Source: an uncultured Candidatus Binatia bacterium
GTDB lineage: Bacteria; Desulfobacterota; Binatia; UBA9968; CAXXLF01
Length of the DNA stretch: 64,000 nucleotides
Direction: 5' to 3'
Assembly (NCBI GenBank): GCA_965215595.1
Contig: CBDCDW010000005.1
Span: 940,323-1,004,322 of the forward strand
Shown here: positions 4,470-45,033 of the stretch, in pieces
Layout: every line of letters begins with the position of its first letter
How positions within the stretch are numbered: the first letter of the stretch is position 1
Position numbers and translations under genes: made by a program
Notes under the pieces: generated by a model
What the model was told of the DNA's origin: nothing
Seen by the model: the letters and a program-made list of their open reading frames with translations, nothing else
Database searches by the model: none

Positions 4470-4823
4470 AAGCAGAGTTAAGCTTAGGGGTTAAAAAACA
4501 CCAATGTCAAGGGGCAGGTGGTGGTGAGCAAAGTCGAATCACGCTTCAGCGGCCTCTCGGCGCAAAGCCAAGTTCAACTATGTCATTGCGGGCTCAGGGG
4601 CCCGTCCCTCAGCGGGAGCCGATGGGTCTCTACCTCAAGGCCCCGTCATTTTATCTCAATGCCAAAGTGACATACCTCCCGTATCGGACGTCTCCCCAGC
4701 TTCAGACCAAGCCCCCTGCGCCCCCGTATTGCGCCATGTATAATCTAACCCAAGGGCGATACGTTGCGCCATTTGTGATTCTAACCCTCCAAGGGCTCAC
4801 ATTAGAGCTCAAGGAGGGCAACA

Positions 4824-5330
4824 ATGGAAGGGTTCACCATGGCACGACGATCCAAGCAGGAGTATTTACGATCCATCTATGATCGTTATCAGCACGCACC
4901 ACGGGCACAGAAGGGAACGATGCTAGAGGAATTCTGCAAGGTTTGCGGCTACAACCGCAAATATGCCATCTGGCTTTTAAACCGGCCCTTGCCCGAGGCA
5001 ACTGTACGCAAACGGGGTGCACCTCGCTCTCCTACATACAATCGGGCAATGGTAAGGATTTTGGCAAAGGTGTGGGAGGCCTCGGGGTATCTGTGCTCCC
5101 AACGTCTGAAGGCCGCCCTTGTACACTGGTTGCCCTGGATAAGGCAACACTTCGAGCTGACCCAACCGTTAGAGGATCAGCTCCTGGCCATCAGCGCCCG
5201 TCAGATGGATCGGCGCCTGAGGGAAACCAAGCACATCGTGAAACGCCGACTCTATGGCACCACTCGGCCCGGATCGCTACTAACCCGACTTAGCGGATTC
5301 GCGGGGTTCAGTGCTCGTAAGTACCTGTAA
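4824..5330 (+). pseudogene. Outer-IS transposase, N-terminal (HTH) part; interrupted by nested IS at 5281 (last 16 codons are read-through into the inserted element)
   Basis: The 168 aa ORF lacks a catalytic core. It continues in 7297..8121, which carries the DDE/rve core. Confidence 0.6.
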
Positions 5331-7290
5331 ATCAACGAGAGCTTCCAAAAGGTCTTCACTACATCGAGCTATTTCGCCACTTCACCTTTGGCCGTAACAC
5401 GGGGAGGCAGCTGACTGGGCAATGAAAGCCGCAGCTGCTCAAGCAAGACCTGGAGTTCGGGCTCAGGCTGTGTATAGCGTGACATGATCACCTTGCGTCC
5501 ATCAGTGGTCGGCAAATGCACGTCTATCATCTGAACAGCACCGAACTTTTCCAGAACCGATCGCGGTGTCAATCCCGGTGCCAAATCCCGCAGGTGGCGA
5601 CGCAAGGTCACATGCATGGCGTAAGCCATGAAGGCTACGAATATGTGAGCTTCGATGCGTTCCTCCTTCTGGTGGTGGATCGGACGGATCGCCAGATCAC
5701 CCTTGAGGTTCTTGAACGCTTCTTCGACCTGAACCAGTTGCATGTAGAACTCCCACATCTGTTCAGGCTCGCGTCCAACCAGGTTCGTTCTCAGCAAGTA
5801 ACGTCCTTCTCGGCGCCGGACCTTTTGTAGCTGGTCCTTTCGCAATGAGAACTGCACCGACCCATTGCCATCAGGGATGTCGATCCGAACCAGTCGCCAG
5901 GCCGAAGGCGATTGCTGCCTGGCGGCCCCGAGTTTCAGCAACAGCTCGTCACGCGTCAACTTCATGCCTTGTAGCTGCTTAAGCCGCCTCCACAGCTTCT
6001 TTAGTTGCCGACGCCGCATGGAGCGCTCCTTGTTGATGCGATCACGACTCTGTGCCAACACATACAACTCATCGTCTTGTGGTAGTAACTTGACCTCCAC
6101 TCCTTCGCGCACTGTATGCCACGGCTTGTCGATCAGCTCCTTCTCGTAACGGCTCAGTCGTCCCTTAGGCGTTCCCACCAGGTAATAGATCGGCGGAGTG
6201 CTTTCGCGCATCTGCTTGAGAACCTCCTCGGTCGGAATCCCCCGGTCCATCACCCAGATGCGCTCCGCTTTGCCGTACTGCTCCTCGATCTTGTTGAGAA
6301 ATCCACTCAACGTAGTCTTGTCGGCCGTGTTGCCGGCCATGACTTCATAGGCTAACGGGAACCCTTCCGGGGTCACGATCAGAGCAATCACCACTTGGAC
6401 ACAATCGAAACGCTTGTCACGGCTGTAACCATACTTTCGCTTGTCGTTTTCCGAAAAGGGTGGATTGCTCTCAAAGTAGGTGCTGGTCAGATCGTAGAGC
6501 AGCACGTCGAACTTTGCATTGAACAGATCCTTCCACCGTTGTGTCAGGTGATCAAAAAGCGCTTGCTTGTGACCCAGGAGCTGGTCCAGGCACTTGTAGA
6601 GCTTGTGGATCTCCACCAGTTCAAAGCCCGCCCCCAGACAATCGGCCATCGCGCTGTTGTCGTACCAGTGCCGATGTAACCGCCACTCGCTGCCAGGATC
6701 AATCAGCCGGTAGCAGCTCAACGCCTGCGTGATCAGATCCCAGCGCGTCCCCTTGCGGCTCGGCTCCAACCGTGTCGCCCAGAACTCATCGAGCCCCAAC
6801 TGCTCGTACAGGTGACAGGCCAGCCAGCATGCGCCCCACTGTCTGGGCCGGTGCAGTTCCAGATCCTTCAGCCGGATCTGCACCACTTCGTCGTCATCAA
6901 TTTCTACAGGCCGATCCTCGGCAAACAGTGCTATCGTACGCGGCAATACGGCTCCATCCTCGAAGACCTCGATGGTCTTACGCCATGCCTGATGCTGAGA
7001 GTCGTTGATCTCACCGAGATAGAGCACCTGGCGCTGAACGACTCGTCCACCTGTTACCCGGCGGTTCTCCACCACATTCCAGTAACGGTGTTCCTTGCCA
7101 TCTTTGTTGCGTTTCGTGCAACGTAAGAACATAGCGCACGTAGAATACTGCGTGTTGGGCAACCCTGAAAAGGGGGTAGGTCTTCACTACAGGCTGTTTA
7201 GGCCCATTTCGGGCTCACCTCGCCTTGGAAATTGGCTACTTAAAACGCGAAAAAAGTTATCGAGGGGGTCGAATCCGCTAAGTCGGGCTA
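5281..7290 (-). mobile_element. Nested IS1634-family (IS4 superfamily) insertion sequence, about 2.0 kb, with 22 bp terminal inverted repeats (18 bp perfect core)
   Basis: taAcccgacttagcggattcg at 5281-5302 is the reverse complement of 7269-7290 with one mismatch. The element contains a single 597 aa transposase ORF. Confidence 0.7.
5369..7162 (-). CDS. IS1634-family DDE transposase
   Basis: 597 aa. LLYDLTSTYFE (first D block), VMDRGI (second D) and a C-terminal HQKEERIEAHIFVAFMAY block fit the IS4/IS1634 transposase (DDE_Tnp_1) layout. Confidence 0.65.
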   Translation of the reverse strand: MPNTQYSTCAMFLRCTKRNKDGKEHRYWNVVENRRVTGGRVVQRQVLYLGEINDSQHQAWRKTIEVFEDGAVLPRTIALFAEDRPVEIDDDEVVQIRLKDLELHRPRQWGACWLACHLYEQLGLDEFWATRLEPSRKGTRWDLITQALSCYRLIDPGSEWRLHRHWYDNSAMADCLGAGFELVEIHKLYKCLDQLLGHKQALFDHLTQRWKDLFNAKFDVLLYDLTSTYFESNPPFSENDKRKYGYSRDKRFDCVQVVIALIVTPEGFPLAYEVMAGNTADKTTLSGFLNKIEEQYGKAERIWVMDRGIPTEEVLKQMRESTPPIYYLVGTPKGRLSRYEKELIDKPWHTVREGVEVKLLPQDDELYVLAQSRDRINKERSMRRRQLKKLWRRLKQLQGMKLTRDELLLKLGAARQQSPSAWRLVRIDIPDGNGSVQFSLRKDQLQKVRRREGRYLLRTNLVGREPEQMWEFYMQLVQVEEAFKNLKGDLAIRPIHHQKEERIEAHIFVAFMAYAMHVTLRRHLRDLAPGLTPRSVLEKFGAVQMIDVHLPTTDGRKVIMSRYTQPEPELQVLLEQLRLSLPSQLPPRVTAKGEVAK

Positions 7291-7296
7291 AAGCAG

Positions 7297-8121
7297 ATGA
7301 TCCCGATTAAGACCGATCACTGGGATGTGAACCGGCCGGGCTATCTGGAGATTGACCTGGTGTCACACTCAGGGGCCTCAGCGGTTGGGGAGTTTGTCCA
7401 TAGTCTGGACTGTGTCGACATTGCTACCTGCTGGGTAGAGCGCAAGGCCGTCATGGGTAAGAGCGCTTTGGGTGTCTTGAATGCGGTCACCGAGATCGAA
7501 CACCAGCTTCCTTTTCCCCTCAAGGGGATCGACTCCGACAACGGCAGTGAGTTTATCAACAACCGCCTTCTTGCCTTCTGTCAACAACGCCCAGCTGGCC
7601 ACACCATTCAGTTCACCCGCTCGCGTCCCTACAAAAAAGATGACAACGCGCACATCGAGCAGAAAAACTGGACCCATGTCAGAAAGCTTATGGGCTGGGA
7701 TCGCTACGACACCGCAAAGGCCCAAGAGGCCGCCAACCAGCTCTATGATGAACTTAGGATCTTCCAGAATCTGTTCCAGCCCTCCATGAAGCTGCGATGC
7801 AAGATCCGTATAGGCTCTCGACTTATTCGCCGCTATGACACGCCTCGTACCCCGTTCGAACGGGTCGTGGAGTCCCGAAAGGGAGACCCCAAAAAGCTGG
7901 CAGCCCTCAAGCACACGCTTAAGACAACTGATCCCTTCGAGCTCTCTACCCGAATCGATCAGCAACTGCAGCGGATCTACAAGCTGGCCAGCCATGCAGA
8001 CAGAGCCCCACGAGAGAGACCACCGCTGAAACAAACGCCGTGGAGAAACTGGACCTTCAGCAAGAAACTACAGCGCCAACAACAGGACATGAAACGACAG
8101 ATGCGAGACGACTTCGGTTAG
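7297..8121 (+). pseudogene. Outer-IS transposase, C-terminal rve (integrase-core) DDE part
   Basis: Contains GIDSDNGSEFIN and a downstream E block typical of the rve catalytic core. It has no HTH N-terminus of its own. The 3' end lies inside the right IR. Confidence 0.6.
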
Positions 8122-8514
8122 ATTTTGTAATGACGCAACGAATCCCGCTAGGGTTAGATTTTTTGATGGCTTAACACGCCCCAACATGCGTGCCGAGTAA
8201 TGAGTGCTGAGTACTGAGCCGGGAAAAATGAAAGTCGGGGAGGGCTCAAGGTTCTCCCTGAGCGAAACATGGACGGAGCAGCGGGCTACCCACCGTGGTC
8301 GGCACCGCATGAATGCCGGAGTCCGCCCACGGCTAATCTGAGATCCGGAAGGTTCGTGCGAGCGCCGGCCCGGTGGGTCGCTGCGGGAGTCCCGTGGAGC
8401 GAGGGGAGTGAGGAAGCCCTCATGTTACAGGTCTATTACCCACGGCCGGGCTTCGACGATGAGCGCAGCCGAACCGAGGCTCGCTCCCCGAGGAGACATT
8501 TCGCACCACAGTTT

Positions 8515-26638: not shown

Positions 26639-27392
26639 AGGTATCCCTCAACGATCGAAAATAGAGTAATTAATTTTTTGTGACGGGATCTGCCGAGAAG
26701 GGAATAAAAAGAACCTTGCTGAACTGCCGCTTATTTATCGACCCCACTCCATCCCAAGCCGCACGGCCGCCACTTCATTGATCAATCAAACTAACTTAAA
26801 ATATACCGCATCTGCACCTGAATTTGAAGGTCGTGCAGGGCAAATAATTCAACCCAGATAAGGAAAAACCCTTTATGGGCATGCAAATCCTACCCTCTGG
26901 AGGAGCTAATGACGGGTTTGCCAAATAAGCACGAAGGTTACTGACTCAGACCTTTTCCATTTGACCACACGTGTAGGGCTGGAGTTGGAGAAAGAACATC
27001 CGCTCTTAGTTCTTGATATTAAAGGGAATGTTTGTCTTGAAAACGTTCTCCCTACCCTGCGAAGTCCCCTTCTACACAAAGGCACTCCCTCCCGTGGACA
27101 CGGAGCCGGCCTGGAACCGCTGCAAGAACGAAATCAGGCAGGGCAGGTAGCTCCAATCCTCTATCTCCACTATTCTCTCTTAAAGATAAAGGTTAATTCC
27201 ATAGAACTGAGTAGCCACTCTGAGCCTGGATTGGCTCAGTGTCAGACCCCTTGGAAGCAATTCATGGACTAGTTAAATTCGATTGGTATTTTTTGGGGTC
27301 TATTGGAACGTATCCTATGGCATGATCGCGAGTCTCCTGTTGAAATTTACTCGAGCAAAGACGTATAGCATTCTGGGAGGTGATAATTATTT

Positions 27393-32591: not shown

Positions 32592-32780
32592 ATGTCAGGA
32601 AACGACTGGCCACGCTCCGGCAGACATATAATCCACCAGAAAAATTTCTCTACCCTTCCTCATTTTCTGCAATGTGAAATGTCACGTCTAATCAGGCTTG
32701 GAGCCGCTCTGGGCTTGGGTTTGCTCAGTGTCAGACCGCCAGGACGCAACTCATGAGCTAGTTAAATGCTTCCTACGTGC

Positions 32781-41665: not shown

Positions 41666-41798
41666 ATTCCACCTCCTTAAAATTGACGTGTTCGTAGTTA
41701 CAATTAAAATAACGTGCCAATTGCAAGTACCTCAAGGGTGGCAATCGAAGTAGGTTCCGAATATTGGGCACCATGTCCTTGATATCATTTCCACATCG

Positions 41799-41960
41799 CT
41801 AGAACACGAACGCGAATCGTATGCCTGCAACGAAGACGAAGTCTTCTCGCGGGTTGGCTGCCGGGTCAAAGACGAACTGGAAGTCGGCTGAGAGCCCCAG
41901 TGTCGGCGTGATCTGAAACCCGTCGAAGGTCTCAAGGAACGGCTCGTCGCAAACGCCGAT
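41799..41960 (-). pseudogene. C-terminal remnant (54 codons, preceded by an in-frame stop) of an outer-membrane porin (OprB-like)
   Basis: Minus-strand translation IGVCDEPFLETFDGFQITPTLGLSADFQFVFDPAANPREDFVFVAGIRFAFVF ends in aromatic-X-F, the OMP beta-barrel C-terminus. There is no upstream continuation. Confidence 0.4.
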
Positions 41961-42160
41961 TTAGTGGCGACAAAAACTTGTCACTAACTGACGTTAATGT
42001 AGGCCATTGACGAGAAGTGTACCGACACAGGCTGCACCCTGTAAAATGTAAAGGTCCCACCGCACATTTTGACCCCGTATCTTATCCTTGAAAAGCCGAA
42101 CGCAAACCCCTGCGTCAATCAGGTTACTGCGTCTTTTCCCAGGCCTATAGACCCCTTACA

Positions 42161-42406
42161 TTATTTGGGATCCATCGTCACAACAACCTCCCGGCCCTTT
42201 ATTTTATACTTTAACTTCAAAAGCTGCTTATTCTGGTTATACCAGACAGAAATTTTCCACTCGCCAGAGAAAACAAACCTGCTGGCAGGAATGGTTCGCT
42301 CGCCTATAGAAACAGCGTCCTTACTTTCGCTAAGCTTAGCACTTGAGGCAAACGAGAGGAGCTGTTTCGTATACCTTGCGGATAAAGAAAAAATGCGTCT
42401 CCTCAA
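42161..42406 (-). pseudogene. Truncated paralogous copy (3' 80 codons) of gene 43321..43953
   Basis: Peptide ..SESKDAVSIGERTIPASRFVFSGEWKISVWYNQNKQLLKLKYKIKGREVVVTMDPK against ..SESKDVVSIGERSIPASRFDFSGEWKIAVWYDQNKQLLKIKYKIRGRDVVVTMDPK. About 90% nt identity over about 195 bp (42140-42335 vs 43296-43495), extending past the stop codon. Confidence 0.7.
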
Positions 42407-42545
42407 CTCCTTAGAGGCGGGCAGGGGAAGCCTCGGTGATCGCCGTCGGTTCTTCCTCCGTTCTCCCTTACCCCTTACCTTCCATGTCCCATAACGACTC
42501 CGCTCCTATGCCCATTGAAATTAGTATCAATAATAGTATCATAAC

Positions 42546-42806
42546 TTGGTGTCGGCTGTTGAAGATATCGTCGCCGCCATGCGAAGGAATCCGAAGGGTA
42601 TTCGGTTCTCCGATTTGTGCCGGGTTTGCGACCATTATTTTGGTAAAGCCCGGCAACGAGGAAGCAGCCATCGGGTATACAAGACTCCCTGGGCAGGCGA
42701 CCCCAGAGTCAATATTCAAAACGCCAAGGGCAAAGCCAAGATTTACCAAGTGAAACAAGTGTTATTAGCGATTGGAAGGTTGGAACATGGGCGCGATACC
42801 GGTTAA
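42546..42806 (+). CDS. hicA: HicA-family (YcfA-like) mRNA interferase toxin
   Basis: ..DLCRVCDHYFGKARQRGSSHRVYKTPW.. has the GSH core of HicA. The downstream gene overlaps it. Confidence 0.6.
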   Translation: MVSAVEDIVAAMRRNPKGIRFSDLCRVCDHYFGKARQRGSSHRVYKTPWAGDPRVNIQNAKGKAKIYQVKQVLLAIGRLEHGRDTG

Positions 42807-43119
42807 TCATTATACATACCGGGTGACGTGGTCGGAGGATGACAAGGAGTATGTAGGCCTCTGTGCTGAGTTTCCCAGCCTGACTTGGCTCGCTTCCACT
42901 CAAGAAGCTGCGCTTCGTGGTATTCGCTCCGTAGTCAAGAAGGTAGTGGCTGACATGAAGAAGAACCGCGAGCCTATCCCGGAGCCATTGGCCACCCATG
43001 AATTCAGCGGAAAGTTCATGGTCAGAGTGCCTCCAGAAGTTCACCGAAGACTTGCTCTGGAAGCGGCGGAGTGCGGCGTGAGCCTGAACCGAGTGGCCAG
43101 CGCAAAGCTCTCGCACTGA
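42787..43119 (+). CDS. hicB: HicB-family antitoxin
   Basis: N-terminal YTYRVTWSEDDKEYVGLCAEFP (HicB RNase-H-like domain) and a C-terminal RHH-like FSGKFMVRVPPEVHRRLALEAAECGVSLNRVASAKL. Confidence 0.65.
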   Translation: MGAIPVNHYTYRVTWSEDDKEYVGLCAEFPSLTWLASTQEAALRGIRSVVKKVVADMKKNREPIPEPLATHEFSGKFMVRVPPEVHRRLALEAAECGVSLNRVASAKLSH

Positions 43120-43320
43120 ATGAATGATAAGAATTTCATTTGGGGCATGGGCTTAGAACCGGAAGAATTTCAATGTGATAGAGTATCCCCTGAGATTTGA
43201 AATTGAGTTGAATTTAACAGATTCCAATGCGGGATCGAGAGCTTTATCCGGTACCCTATACTGGGGATGAACTTGAGATGATTCGCCCTCGATTAATTAG
43301 GGGCATCTAGGCGCCCTACA

Positions 43321-43953
43321 TCATTTGGGATCCATCGTCACAACAACATCCCGGCCCCTTATTTTATATTTTATCTTCAAAAGCTGCTTATTCTGGTCAT
43401 ACCAGACCGCAATTTTCCACTCGCCAGAGAAATCAAACCTGCTGGCAGGAATGGATCGCTCGCCTATGGAAACAACGTCCTTACTTTCACTAATCTTGAC
43501 CTTCATCAACCGGAGATCTTTAAGGTCAAAGAGGAGCGACTTTTGTGTGATTTTGTAATGCCAAACGGACGTCGGAAAGGCATCGTGCGGCAGCGTCAAA
43601 CGTTTGCCGTTCAGCACAACATCATACTCTTTTACATTACGTTGGAGCGACAACTCGTAAATTTTACCATGATCGTCGGTGTATCCCTGGATGCTTTTGG
43701 GTTCCTCATCTTTCCACACCTCATGCAGATCCTGCGTGAAGTAATGAAGTTTAATCCCAAGTATGGATACCGAGCTTCGCGTCCTGAGTTCTTCTACCAT
43801 CCCCTTTTCGTTGAGTCGAAGCGTGTAGTGAACGGAGCCGATTTTTTTTTCATTCAGATGAATCGAAGCGAAATGATTTTGATCCGCTGCGCCTGCGACG
43901 TGTGAAACAACGAGCACCGCTAGCACGGTCAAACATAGTGCGAGTCGCGACAT
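43321..43953 (-). CDS. Secreted hypothetical protein (210 aa); donor of the duplicated 3' fragment at 42161..42406
   Basis: Signal peptide LAVLVVSHVAGAADQ. Confidence 0.5.
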   Translation of the reverse strand: MSRLALCLTVLAVLVVSHVAGAADQNHFASIHLNEKKIGSVHYTLRLNEKGMVEELRTRSSVSILGIKLHYFTQDLHEVWKDEEPKSIQGYTDDHGKIYELSLQRNVKEYDVVLNGKRLTLPHDAFPTSVWHYKITQKSLLFDLKDLRLMKVKISESKDVVSIGERSIPASRFDFSGEWKIAVWYDQNKQLLKIKYKIRGRDVVVTMDPK

Positions 43954-44232: not shown

Positions 44233-45033
44233 TTAGCTACCAAGCTCCCTATGGAGGAACTCGAAACTTCTCGCATAGGACAGGTTGGTGGCCGACCGCT
44301 GGTCGGCCGGCACTTCAGCATCCGGAGTGATTTGGGCAAAGCTATGCCCCATTCCTTCATACCAGTGCAACTCGTAGGCCTTGCCAAAATGGTTCAATGC
44401 ACGGGAAAAAGCATCCACCTCGGCGCGAGGGGTCGAGTGGTCCTCTGTTCCATAGTGACATTGAAGCTTGCAGGTGATTGTTTCCAGCTCACGCATATCC
44501 GGGAACAGACTCTGGTGGTAGATGACGCCGGCCTGGAAGACTTCGGTACGACCGTGTTAAGCCATCAAAAAATCTAACCCTAGCGGGATTCGTTGCGTCA
44601 TTACAAAATCTAACCGAAGTCGTCTCGCAGCCAGCAGGGCCAACCCGCCGCCCAGGCAGAATCCCATAATCCCAACTTTGCTCCGGGGTCCCACTGACGG
44701 AAGGCTACGCAAAAACGCCACGCCCCCGGCGATTTGTTCCACCGCCGCTTTTACATCCAGCGAGTTTTTCGCGTAAAGTCCCTCGGTTCTATTGGCCGGT
44801 AACTGGCCACCCATGTAGTCGGGCGAAAGCGCCACAAACCCGGCCCGCGCAAACAGACGTGTGATCTCCCGCTGAGTCCAGGTGAGGCCACCCATACCGG
44901 ACAGCAAGACCACGCCTGGCCGTGGCGGTCCATCCGCCGGGCGGGCCACGAAGCCGTCTGAGTAGAAACCGTTGGTCTCGTACCCGGCGTGGAGTGAGTT
45001 CGGGCGAAAGCGCCACGATGCGTTCGCCGTCAA
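44233..45033 (-). pseudogene. Dienelactone hydrolase family gene disrupted by a 77 bp IS-end footprint
   Basis: N-part (44557..45033) carries GFCLGGG. C-part (44233..44496) carries HYGTEDHSTP...WYEGMGHSF. Between them, 44553-44629 is identical to the reverse complement of the outer-IS right end (8102-8178) and supplies the aberrant C-terminus RLRLDFVMTQRIPLGLDFLMA. Confidence 0.65.
44553..44629 (-). mobile_element. Solo IS terminal-repeat remnant (77 bp, 100% identical to the right end of the IS at 4725-8178 in inverted orientation)
   Basis: gtgttaagccatcaaaaaatctaaccctagcgggattcgttgcgtcattacaaaatctaaccgaagtcgtctcgca equals rc of 8102-8178. Confidence 0.8.

Follow-up and report, generated by a model that had tools for sequence, protein, structure and literature searches.

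A hicAB toxin-antitoxin (TA) module was found to lie between the live 3′ end of a DUF6134 gene and an old orphan copy of that same gene end, within the 64-kb stretch of DNA from an uncultured Candidatus Binatia bacterium that was analyzed (hereafter, the window). The bracketing is a matter of ordinary genome rearrangement. Our best explanation as a whole, to which we give an even chance of being correct, is that a class 4 hicAB operon resides in a decaying stretch of DNA and is flanked by gene-end repeats whose likeliest origin is duplication followed by decay.

Results

The hicAB module

As the preliminary description had reported, hicA and hicB overlap and are arranged with the toxin gene first. 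hicA occupies 42546-42806 and hicB 42787-43119, both on the forward strand, and the overlap is 20 nt. Translation of hicA from TTG at 42546 would yield 86 aa and from GTG at 42549, which is the likelier start, 85 aa. Class 4 hicAB loci have hicA upstream and a HicB with a C-terminal ribbon-helix-helix (RHH) domain (Gerdes 2024, PMC10865869).

A search with the HicA and HicB family models had been proposed as a check of the two assignments, and its outcome was divided. The 110-aa HicB passed the PF05534 threshold (E=1e-13 and 51.4 bits, where the cutoff is 21; residues 65-102), and PF05534 was also matched by all 41 HicB relatives examined. Among these relatives there were weak matches to other RHH families (FitA-like in 25, Arc in 8, and Omega-repressor in 6), and weak DUF1902 matches in only 3. 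The AF2 model of HicB was poor (pLDDT 48.6). Its strands at residues 9-16 and 21-26 and helix at 39-59 are compatible with, and not diagnostic of, the N-terminal partial RNase H fold with which a HicB antitoxin shields the active site of HicA. The C-terminal region was modeled, at low confidence, as a strand (76-81) that leads into a helix (83-95), and a C-terminal RHH domain is assigned to HicB. Homologues number in the thousands, several sources label them as HicB family antitoxins, and the exact protein occurs in 9 contigs. HicB is thus probably an antitoxin with a C-terminal RHH repressor domain, through which it may regulate its own operon.

HicA, in contrast, fell below the PF07927 gathering cutoff (13.6 bits against 27, E=0.075), with residues 34-74 aligned to profile positions 15-54 of 58. 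Weak, sub-threshold PF07927 matches were obtained for 17 of 25 HicA family members, the best at E=7.5e-4. Upwards of 5,600 homologues, 70-84% identical, are spread across phyla, and some are named toxin HicA. All 27 residues that are invariant in the family alignment are kept in the window protein, S41 and H42 among them; G39 is nearly invariant across the 25 members. The HicA family has a conserved glycine in the β1-β2 turn and a conserved active-site histidine at β2 (PMC6159526). In the AF2 model of the window HicA (pLDDT 84.5; helix-strands-helix core), read together with the alignment, G39-S40-S41-H42 lies just before or opens the strand at 42-46, so that both the glycine and the histidine are found where the family has them. 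The model also carries an extra N-terminal helix. The only compact structural matches that Foldseek returned were to Burkholderia pseudomallei HicA (6g26_F and 4c26), at E-values that were not significant; 6g26_F superimposed with a target-normalized TM score of 0.68 and an rmsd of 2.9 Å.

When searched against PDB sequences, neither the single HicA and HicB proteins nor their 25-member and 41-member profiles matched any HicA or HicB, and an NCBIfam search returned nothing for either protein. Alignment of the HicA profile to E. coli HicA (6hpb_A) by hhalign was negative, a result that is uninformative given that the template was a single sequence. All nine strain assemblies examined lack a gene call for hicA. 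In each of 80 GTDB loci from many phyla (80 of 80), the HicA homologue is followed directly by a HicB homologue in the same orientation. Taken together, the PF05534 match, the conservation of the HicA family, and the constant HicB partner bear out the assignment of a hicA-hicB module. The HicA model is consistent with a small dsRBD-fold RNase that is probably toxic.

The module could be delimited by comparison with the closest other hicAB locus, L012, which lies at a different site and adjoins brnTA. The DNA common to the two is confined to 42496-43150 (forward strand; 94.5% identical), a unit that comprises the promoter/operator region, hicA, hicB, and a further 31 nt. A σ70-like promoter (TTGAAA-16-TATCAT, 42515-42542, forward strand) is predicted within this unit and is conserved in L012. 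The promoter overlaps a direct repeat, TAGTATCA-ATAA-TAGTATCA, at 42522-42541, which is a candidate HicB operator. Because of the position of the promoter, the mRNA is predicted to be leaderless and to begin at GTG 42549. In the 80 other genomes, similarity to the module was limited to the two ORFs in every case, with no common element ends; across phyla the hicAB family retains 65-80% identity in unrelated contexts and is highly mobile. These features describe an intact and probably functional class 4 TA operon with its own promoter and a candidate operator.

The direct repeats and the DUF6134 gene

Repeat search and pairwise alignment resolved the segments on either side of the cassette into a single direct-repeat family of 196 nt, gapless and 90% identical, with copies at 42142-42337 (L) and 43302-43497 (R) whose starts are 1160 nt apart. 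The two segments of about 90% identity that had been described are therefore real, although their earlier coordinates (42140-42335 and 43296-43495) were off by 2-6 nt. Self-BLAST of the region gave 90.3% identity over 196 nt (E=2e-73) and no third copy in the 64-kb window. Stretches of identity between L and R are 21-25 nt at the longest.

R is contiguous with an intact ORF on the reverse strand (43321-43953) and, as had been claimed, is the genuine end of that gene (176 coding nt) together with 19 nt of post-stop sequence. The gene encodes a 210-aa DUF6134 protein (PF19630, E=5e-28) with a signal-peptide-like N-terminus; 161 homologues were collected, mostly also of 210 aa. L, on the same strand, is an orphan that duplicates the final 176 coding nt and is non-functional, and the extension of the duplication past the stop codon, previously put at about 20 bp, measures 19 nt. 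L lies within an ORF at 42161-42406 (reverse strand) in which likeness to DUF6134 is limited to the C-terminal 56 residues (a weak PF19630 match, E=2.5e-5, profile positions 130-182 of 184) and stops abruptly at 42337/42338, in agreement with the claim of a truncated copy that has no upstream part. We interpret 42337/42338 as a rearrangement junction.

A 2-nt post-stop deletion and several substitutions are common to L, R, and the contig L132 (described below) when these are compared with six outgroup lineages. These common changes mark L as derived from the DUF6134 gene of its own lineage. Seven substitutions are private to L (4 non-synonymous and 3 synonymous), and R is polymorphic at two sites within the species. 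The L branch carries about 10 changes and the R branch about 8, a slight excess that would provide poor backing for a long neutral decay of L. L is best described as an old pseudogene fragment, diverged by about 7-10%.

The two copies differ in what adjoins them. Beside R, at 43273-43301 (reverse strand), the gene keeps its ancestral downstream flank, which is homologous to that of the six outgroup lineages; by BLAST, homology reaches 43284 for L009 and L135 and 43273 for L136. The outgroup-type flank beside R thus amounts to about 27 nt (reaching about +46 past the stop), and L has none. None of the six outgroups has the sequence to the left of L (42079-42141, reverse strand); in L132 this sequence runs on from an intact gene and differs at 1 of 63 nt. 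Unrelated sequence separates the hicAB module from the repeats: 158 nt on the L side (42338-42495, beginning at the junction with L) and 151 nt on the R side, of which 43151-43272 forms the spacer between the module and the ancestral flank. The two spacers and the left flank as a whole (41961-42141) had no homologue in the window or in about 130 fetched loci, except for 42079-42141 in L132. A single-protein DUF6134 scan of the genome contigs found no relative, and none of the neighbors of the window DUF6134 gene was present near its orthologues.

Strains and the surrounding stretch

The L-hicAB-R arrangement was present in all ten strains at more than 99% identity. Sister strains carry IS insertions at positions corresponding to 42073 and 41712 of the window and inside a DLH gene, and the window itself contains a 72-nt IS stub. 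At 41799-41960 (reverse strand), the ORF previously noted as a porin C-terminal fragment indeed matched the last 48 positions of the OprB family PF04966 (E=3.4e-6). A stop codon precedes it and it is therefore considered a relic; OprB occurs nowhere else in the window. The region is prone to rearrangement, and the stretch has the appearance of a graveyard of truncated genes and decaying intergenic DNA.

Related loci and the contig L132

Comparison with related genomes, which the preliminary description had called for, gave a mixed answer. In six related lineages the DUF6134 gene is single-copy and there is no cassette, and among about 45 related loci none has two DUF6134 copies. The contig L132 also has no cassette: its intact DUF6134 gene is joined directly to an L-type tail and flank. 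Set against a hybrid sequence in which the body of R is continued by the tail of L, L132 is gapless with 37 mismatches in 786 nt. Its informative sites follow the pattern x L RRRRRRRR LLLLLLL (permutation p=0.001); a derived base at repeat position 140 is common to R and L132, and derived bases at positions 182, 185, and 187 and the flank are common to L and L132. These sites suggest that L132 records repeat-to-repeat joining.

The tail and flank of L132 are, however, too close to the window for a clean empty site. They differ by 1 mismatch in 83 nt (1.2%), against 8 in 71 upstream and a neutral divergence of about 10% elsewhere in L132 (pS 0.097). No simple vertical history accounts for this closeness; because of it, L132 is more readily taken as a recent recombinant or chimera than as the clean ancestral state. 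Were the empty site ancestral after all, an integration model would be favored. An assembly chimera is unlikely, since identical runs between L and R do not exceed 21-25 nt and those in the switch interval are just 9-13 nt. Acquisition of L from the L132 lineage was also rejected, as 14 of the 140 sites in L positions 1-140 are different in L132.

Discussion

Origin of the arrangement

The locus had been read as the scar of an insertion, by the TA module or by a larger element now reduced to it, with duplication of target sequence. Part of this reading stands: a duplicated gene end does lie on both sides of the cassette, and cassette-free, single-copy relatives exist. What does not stand is a target duplication made by the insertion. 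Direct repeats flanking the cassette are what a classical target-site duplication by a transposase or integrase would leave, but the footprint expected of such an event is a few identical bases, and here the repeats are 196 nt long and 9-10% diverged. The module ends 158 and 151 nt short of them, there are no terminal inverted repeats and no transposase or other recombinase between L and R, and the copies of the module in the 80 other genomes have no element ends in common. In a simple insertion, moreover, the gene-linked copy would be expected to border directly on the insert, with the native flank retained by the distal copy. The ancestral flank lies beside R and not beside L, which is the wrong polarity, and the cassette-free L132, with its tail and flank diverged by 1.2% rather than about 10%, does not provide a clean empty site. 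We thus regard target-site duplication during hicAB insertion as extremely improbable, effectively refuted by length, divergence, boundaries, and polarity, and would not read L and R as a transposition footprint. Reduction of a larger element to hicAB is a live option, albeit a minority one.

We tentatively prefer, at somewhat less than even probability, an order of events in which a local tandem or segmental duplication was followed by decay. hicAB and its spacers would first have come to sit about 46 nt downstream of the DUF6134 gene. A local duplication, with a unit that began 176 nt inside the gene and extended across hicAB, would then have created the junction at 42337/42338. All of the distal unit beyond the first 19 nt after the stop would later have been deleted, so that the 196-nt orphan alone was left. 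Only the geometry and the polarity point to the duplication step, and no intermediate with two full units was seen. Once formed, the 1,160-bp hicAB segment may loop out by homologous recombination between L and R, and the joint expected from such an event is exactly that in L132. Loss of hicAB would presumably be selected against by the post-segregational toxicity of HicA; stabilization by the TA pair in this manner is offered as a possible reason for the persistence of the arrangement.

A Campbell-type integration like that of e14 or phage 21 in icd, which we consider unlikely although a serious contender, would account for the same geometry in another way. A circle carrying hicAB, a surrogate DUF6134 3′ end, and about 46 nt of flank would have recombined with the gene, site-specifically or by homology; the incoming tail would have become R, the resident tail would have become L, displaced 1,160 bp downstream, and the integrase-bearing part of the element would since have been lost. 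The geometry is that of icd and icdC around e14 (PMC13626634), and in L132 an intact gene is followed by the L post-stop sequence and flank, as at an unoccupied site. The derived bases that L132 has in common with R (position 140) and with L (182, 185, 187, and the flank) form the reciprocal mosaic that a single crossover predicts. The high mobility of the hicAB family (65-80% identity across phyla, with the nearest copy at another locus) is also in keeping with an element. Nevertheless, integrase and excisionase genes and inverted ends are all missing from the 1,160 bp, and no integrase domain was found in the neighboring called genes. Two coincidences would be required as well, namely that the mimic carried the ancestral flank and that the recipient was already without it from +20, though six outgroups keep it. 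Because L carries synapomorphies of the clade, the donor must have been a very close sister lineage, and a tail and flank in L132 diverged by about 1%, against about 10% at neutral sites, do not fit a vertically inherited empty site.

Two further readings were weighed. L could be the last remnant of a second full DUF6134 gene, either an older paralogue or one acquired horizontally, which lay downstream in a tandem arrangement and was eroded by deletions, IS-mediated or other, with hicAB merely landing, or staying, between the two genes. Other truncated genes and IS scars occur in the stretch, and most of the amino-acid changes that separate L from R are conservative. We judge this improbable, given that two DUF6134 copies occur in none of the roughly 45 related loci, that homology ends 19 nt after the stop codon on one side and at a sharp junction inside the gene on the other, that L is nearest to R and L132 and not to any other lineage, and that its ratio of 4 non-synonymous to 3 synonymous changes fits neutral decay better than it fits a gene under maintenance. 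There is also a slim chance that the 1.16-kb segment is a minimal, recombinase-free mobile cassette, in which hicAB uses the captured 3′ end of a gene as portable homology for Campbell-type traffic among related Binatia. If so, such traffic would naturally have produced L132, whose near-identical tail would bear witness to a recent exchange between lineages.

Comparison with known systems

Like class 4 hicAB systems such as that of B. pseudomallei (6g26), the window module is a toxin-first, bicistronic operon with overlapping genes, a PF05534 ribbon-helix-helix tail on HicB, a HicA with a helix-strands-helix core and a conserved Gly-Ser-Ser-His opening the second strand, and a promoter that overlaps a repeated sequence, the putative operator. 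It differs in that its HicA, of 85-86 aa with the added N-terminal helix, is below the Pfam HicA threshold and matches no solved HicA in sequence; its subfamily is unusually conserved (65-84% identity across phyla), and its transcript is probably leaderless, with a GTG or TTG start.

The e14 prophage in E. coli icd leaves icdC as a 3′-end pseudogene (Hill et al. 1989; PMC13626634). There, as in the window, a segment lies between a live gene 3′ end and an orphan, slightly diverged copy, and recombination between the repeats removes the segment and leaves a hybrid intact gene. The window segment, however, is only 1.16 kb and holds the TA pair without an integrase or any other element gene. Its gene-proximal copy retains the ancestral host flank, apparently the reverse of the e14 polarity: an element model expects element DNA after the gene-proximal copy and the native flank after the distal orphan. 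The flank of L is absent in the outgroups and contiguous with the gene in L132, whose tail is anomalously similar to the window. The window repeats are also about 9-10% diverged, the non-coding tail included. The locus likewise resembles what remains of spontaneous tandem or segmental duplications, and the chimeric genes that arise by deletion between direct repeats, as with the cpsG paralogues in the LTEE (PMC13626634). A direct repeat of an internal gene segment, one novel junction, and a hybrid single-copy allele (here in a relative) are common to both; the window differs in keeping only 196 nt of the distal unit, with no full two-unit intermediate observed.

The findings bear on annotation and on dynamics, and neither point alters present understanding of TA systems or of genome rearrangement. 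With regard to annotation, the HicA subfamily is very large and strongly conserved; because its members score below the Pfam threshold and were missed by gene callers in nine of nine assemblies, toxin genes of this type are probably under-counted. With regard to dynamics, the locus is a tidy natural case of a TA pair inside gene-end repeats that permit its deletion, and it would lend itself to asking whether the toxicity of a TA pair guards flanking DNA against repeat-mediated loss.

hicAB is a genuine toxin-antitoxin locus

The hicA (42546-42806, TTG/GTG start) and hicB (42787-43119) genes overlap by 20 nt. The C-terminal ribbon-helix-helix region of HicB scored above the Pfam cutoff (PF05534, 51.4 bits vs. 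21), as did all 41 HicB relatives tested; PF05534 is carried by thousands of HicB homologues, and the name "HicB family antitoxin" came from several sources. The structure model of HicB was poor (pLDDT 48.6), too weak to support the partial RNase H fold at its N-terminus. HicA fell under its Pfam cutoff (PF07927, 13.6 bits vs. 27), and a sequence search of solved structures gave no match. Weak PF07927 matches were found in 17 of 25 HicA relatives, and the family counts over 5,600 members, 83-86 aa long and 70-84% identical across phyla (Gammaproteobacteria, Chloroflexota, Verrucomicrobiota, Planctomycetota, Nitrospirota and others), some of them named toxin HicA. All residues invariant in this family are kept in the window HicA, S41 and H42 among them, and G39 is nearly invariant. 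Characterised HicA toxins share a conserved glycine/serine/histidine signature (PMC6159526), which the window HicA matches with Gly-Ser-Ser-His where its second strand begins. An AlphaFold2 model (pLDDT 84.5) showed a helix-strands-helix core behind an extra N-terminal helix; its only compact structural matches were to Burkholderia pseudomallei HicA (6g26_F and 4c26), with E-values that were not significant (for 6g26_F, target-normalised TM 0.68, rmsd 2.9 Å). Moreover, a HicB homologue lay directly downstream on the same strand in 80 of 80 genomes with a window-type HicA. In nine near-identical strain assemblies (loci L001-L008 among them) hicB was called, and hicA in none.

The architecture of the pair corresponds to class 4 in Gerdes' classification (PMC10865869). 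A promoter-like TTGAAA-16-TATCAT at 42515-42542, kept in the closest relative, overlaps the direct repeat TAGTATCA-ATAA-TAGTATCA and ends 6 nt before the GTG at 42549 (3-6 nt over the TTG/GTG starts); there is no Shine-Dalgarno sequence at the hicA start. This combination of start codon, promoter distance and missing Shine-Dalgarno sequence suggests, on sequence grounds, that the hicA mRNA is leaderless, and we infer that the transcript is autoregulated by HicB. The locus is a genuine member of a known toxin-antitoxin class, in a conserved HicA subfamily that scores below the Pfam HicA threshold.

The closest other hicAB, on contig L012, has brnT/brnA and a hydrolase gene as neighbours, and is 94.5% identical to the window over 42496-43150 only, with sharp borders; in the 80 GTDB hicAB loci, DNA similarity was limited to the two ORFs. 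The spacers between the module and the left (42338-42495, 158 nt) and right (43151-43272, about 122 nt) repeats lie outside the conserved module. Neither spacer had a homologue in any fetched sequence. The window contains two copies of a sequence of ~65 nt (32702-32767 and 27213-27278, 82% identical), and the otherwise unrelated L012 two more (112-171 and 5289-5367, 75-90%); it looks like a REP/MITE-like dispersed sequence.

The left repeat derives from the neighbouring DUF6134 gene

All features in the preliminary description (the repeats, the gene end, the hicA/hicB overlap and the porin relic) were present. The single strong direct repeat in the region consists of a left copy, L (42142-42337), and a right copy, R (43302-43497), which are 196 nt long, 90% identical, gapless and spaced 1160 nt apart (BLAST E=2e-73); BLAST found no third copy within the window. 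R, on the (-) strand, contains the last 176 coding nt and 19 post-stop nt of an intact 210-aa DUF6134 gene (43321-43953, (-); PF19630, E=5e-28) with a signal-peptide-like N-terminus. L lies inside a spurious 81-aa ORF, of which only the C-terminal 56 residues are DUF6134-like. Antisense to L, a 141-aa ORF (42069-42494, (+)), annotated in L001 and L004 as a gene of 165 aa extending out of an IS, is almost certainly an annotation artefact. A 24-nt inverted repeat (43537-43560/44599-44622, 83% complementary), with arms in the DUF6134 gene and an IS stub, is probably due to chance.

In its coding part, L has seven private substitutions (four non-synonymous and three synonymous) and R about 4-5; L-R identity varies with strain (177-179/196). 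When 43302-43497 was compared with the same-species sequences P0361 and P0362, R was polymorphic at two L/R-differing sites (Val/Ala and Ala/Ser), the alternative states being those of L; such a pattern may stem from an ancestral polymorphism that has persisted or from conversion of the gene by L.

L, hicAB and R were present in all ten contigs >99% identical to the window (L001-L008, L137). Clusters at 90% identity holding other window proteins are named Candidatus Binatia or Binatota. In six outgroup lineages (L009/L010, L013, L049, L133/L134, L135, L136), whose DUF6134 protein is 82-89% identical, we found a single gene and neither hicAB nor a second copy; the same held for about 30 remoter loci. 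One downstream flank is common to all six outgroups; R retains ~27 nt of it past the repeat, to about 43273, and it is absent beside L. Relative to these outgroups, L, R and the cassette-free contig L132 have several substitutions in common, as well as a deletion of 2 nt after the stop; L was hence copied from the gene of its own lineage.

A cassette-free contig is probably a recent recombinant

L132 is a 786-bp ENA scaffold encoding a protein 94% identical to that of the window. It aligned without gaps (37 mismatches) to a composite of the gene body through R, followed by the L tail and left flank to 42079. At the L/R-discriminating sites, scored against the common R allele, its pattern was x L RRRRRRRR LLLLLLL (permutation p=0.001), although most "R" sites merely show the absence of L's private mutations. 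The diagnostic sites are repeat position 140, where R and L132 have a derived base in common, and positions 182, 185 and 187 together with 63 nt of flank, common to L and L132, which place the switch within repeat positions 141-181. This joint fits either an unoccupied site or deletion by R-by-L recombination. At synonymous sites, L132 and the window diverged by 0.097, and 8 of 71 sites differed in an upstream non-coding stretch, whereas the post-stop region and flank (42079-42160 vs. 704-786 of L132) had a single difference in 83 sites (Poisson P=0.002, Fisher p=0.012). The tail therefore shares far more recent ancestry with the window's species than the gene body does, a contrast that fits no simple vertical history. 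L132 is most likely a recent recombinant; an assembly chimera is less probable, since the switch interval offers identical runs of no more than 9-13 nt. L132 proves that a junction between a gene body and the L tail can form, and is no proof of an ancestral empty site.

Origin of the arrangement

The surroundings are prone to rearrangement. The relic of an OprB porin C-terminus occupies 41799-41960, and the near-identical contigs are told apart by IS elements inserted at 42073, at 41712 and within the dienelactone hydrolase (DLH) gene (window coordinates). In the window, DLH (ORFs 44233-44496 and 44557-45033) is split by a 72-nt stub (44554-44625), a terminal piece of a 1,450-bp IS with a 429-aa product. 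The complete IS occupies the identical site in sister strains L003 and L007, and DLH is intact in L001 and L002; the window allele therefore arose by loss of the interior of the IS rather than by a frameshift. A full copy lies at 4725-8177, split by a roughly 2-kb insertion (5284-7287), and in sister strains the same IS occupies the equivalents of 42073 and 41712, adjoining L. Elsewhere, the window contains a 190-nt direct repeat with copies 57.7 kb apart (2602-2791/60308-60497, 97% identical). Its segment 2677-2745 is 81% identical to a stretch of L136, a contig from another lineage, and the repeat may represent a small dispersed element.

The arrangement had been read as the scar of an insertion with duplication of its target. 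As a transposition-type event this is excluded by the repeat length and divergence, the module borders, the missing element ends and the flank polarity, and we give it at best a negligible probability. Campbell-type integration, for which e14/icd of Escherichia coli offers a comparison (PMC13626634), reproduces the observed geometry; however, no recombinase is present, the incoming mimic would have to carry the ancestral flank, and the recipient would need to have lost that flank beforehand, leaving this origin doubtful. We consider it quite improbable that L is what remains of a second, complete copy of the gene. We tentatively favour, at somewhat less than an even chance, local tandem or segmental duplication followed by decay, which requires the fewest special assumptions. 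With hicAB already downstream of the DUF6134 gene, such a duplication would have created the junction 42337/42338, and the distal unit would then have been deleted from +20 onward. Duplication and decay fit a setting marked by IS polymorphism, the IS stub and the OprB relic.

The rearrangement that encloses hicAB is old and of an ordinary kind, bounded by repeats. Whatever its origin, the segment can be deleted through the repeats; deletants would be selected against by HicA toxicity once HicB is gone, which would stabilise the hicAB segment.
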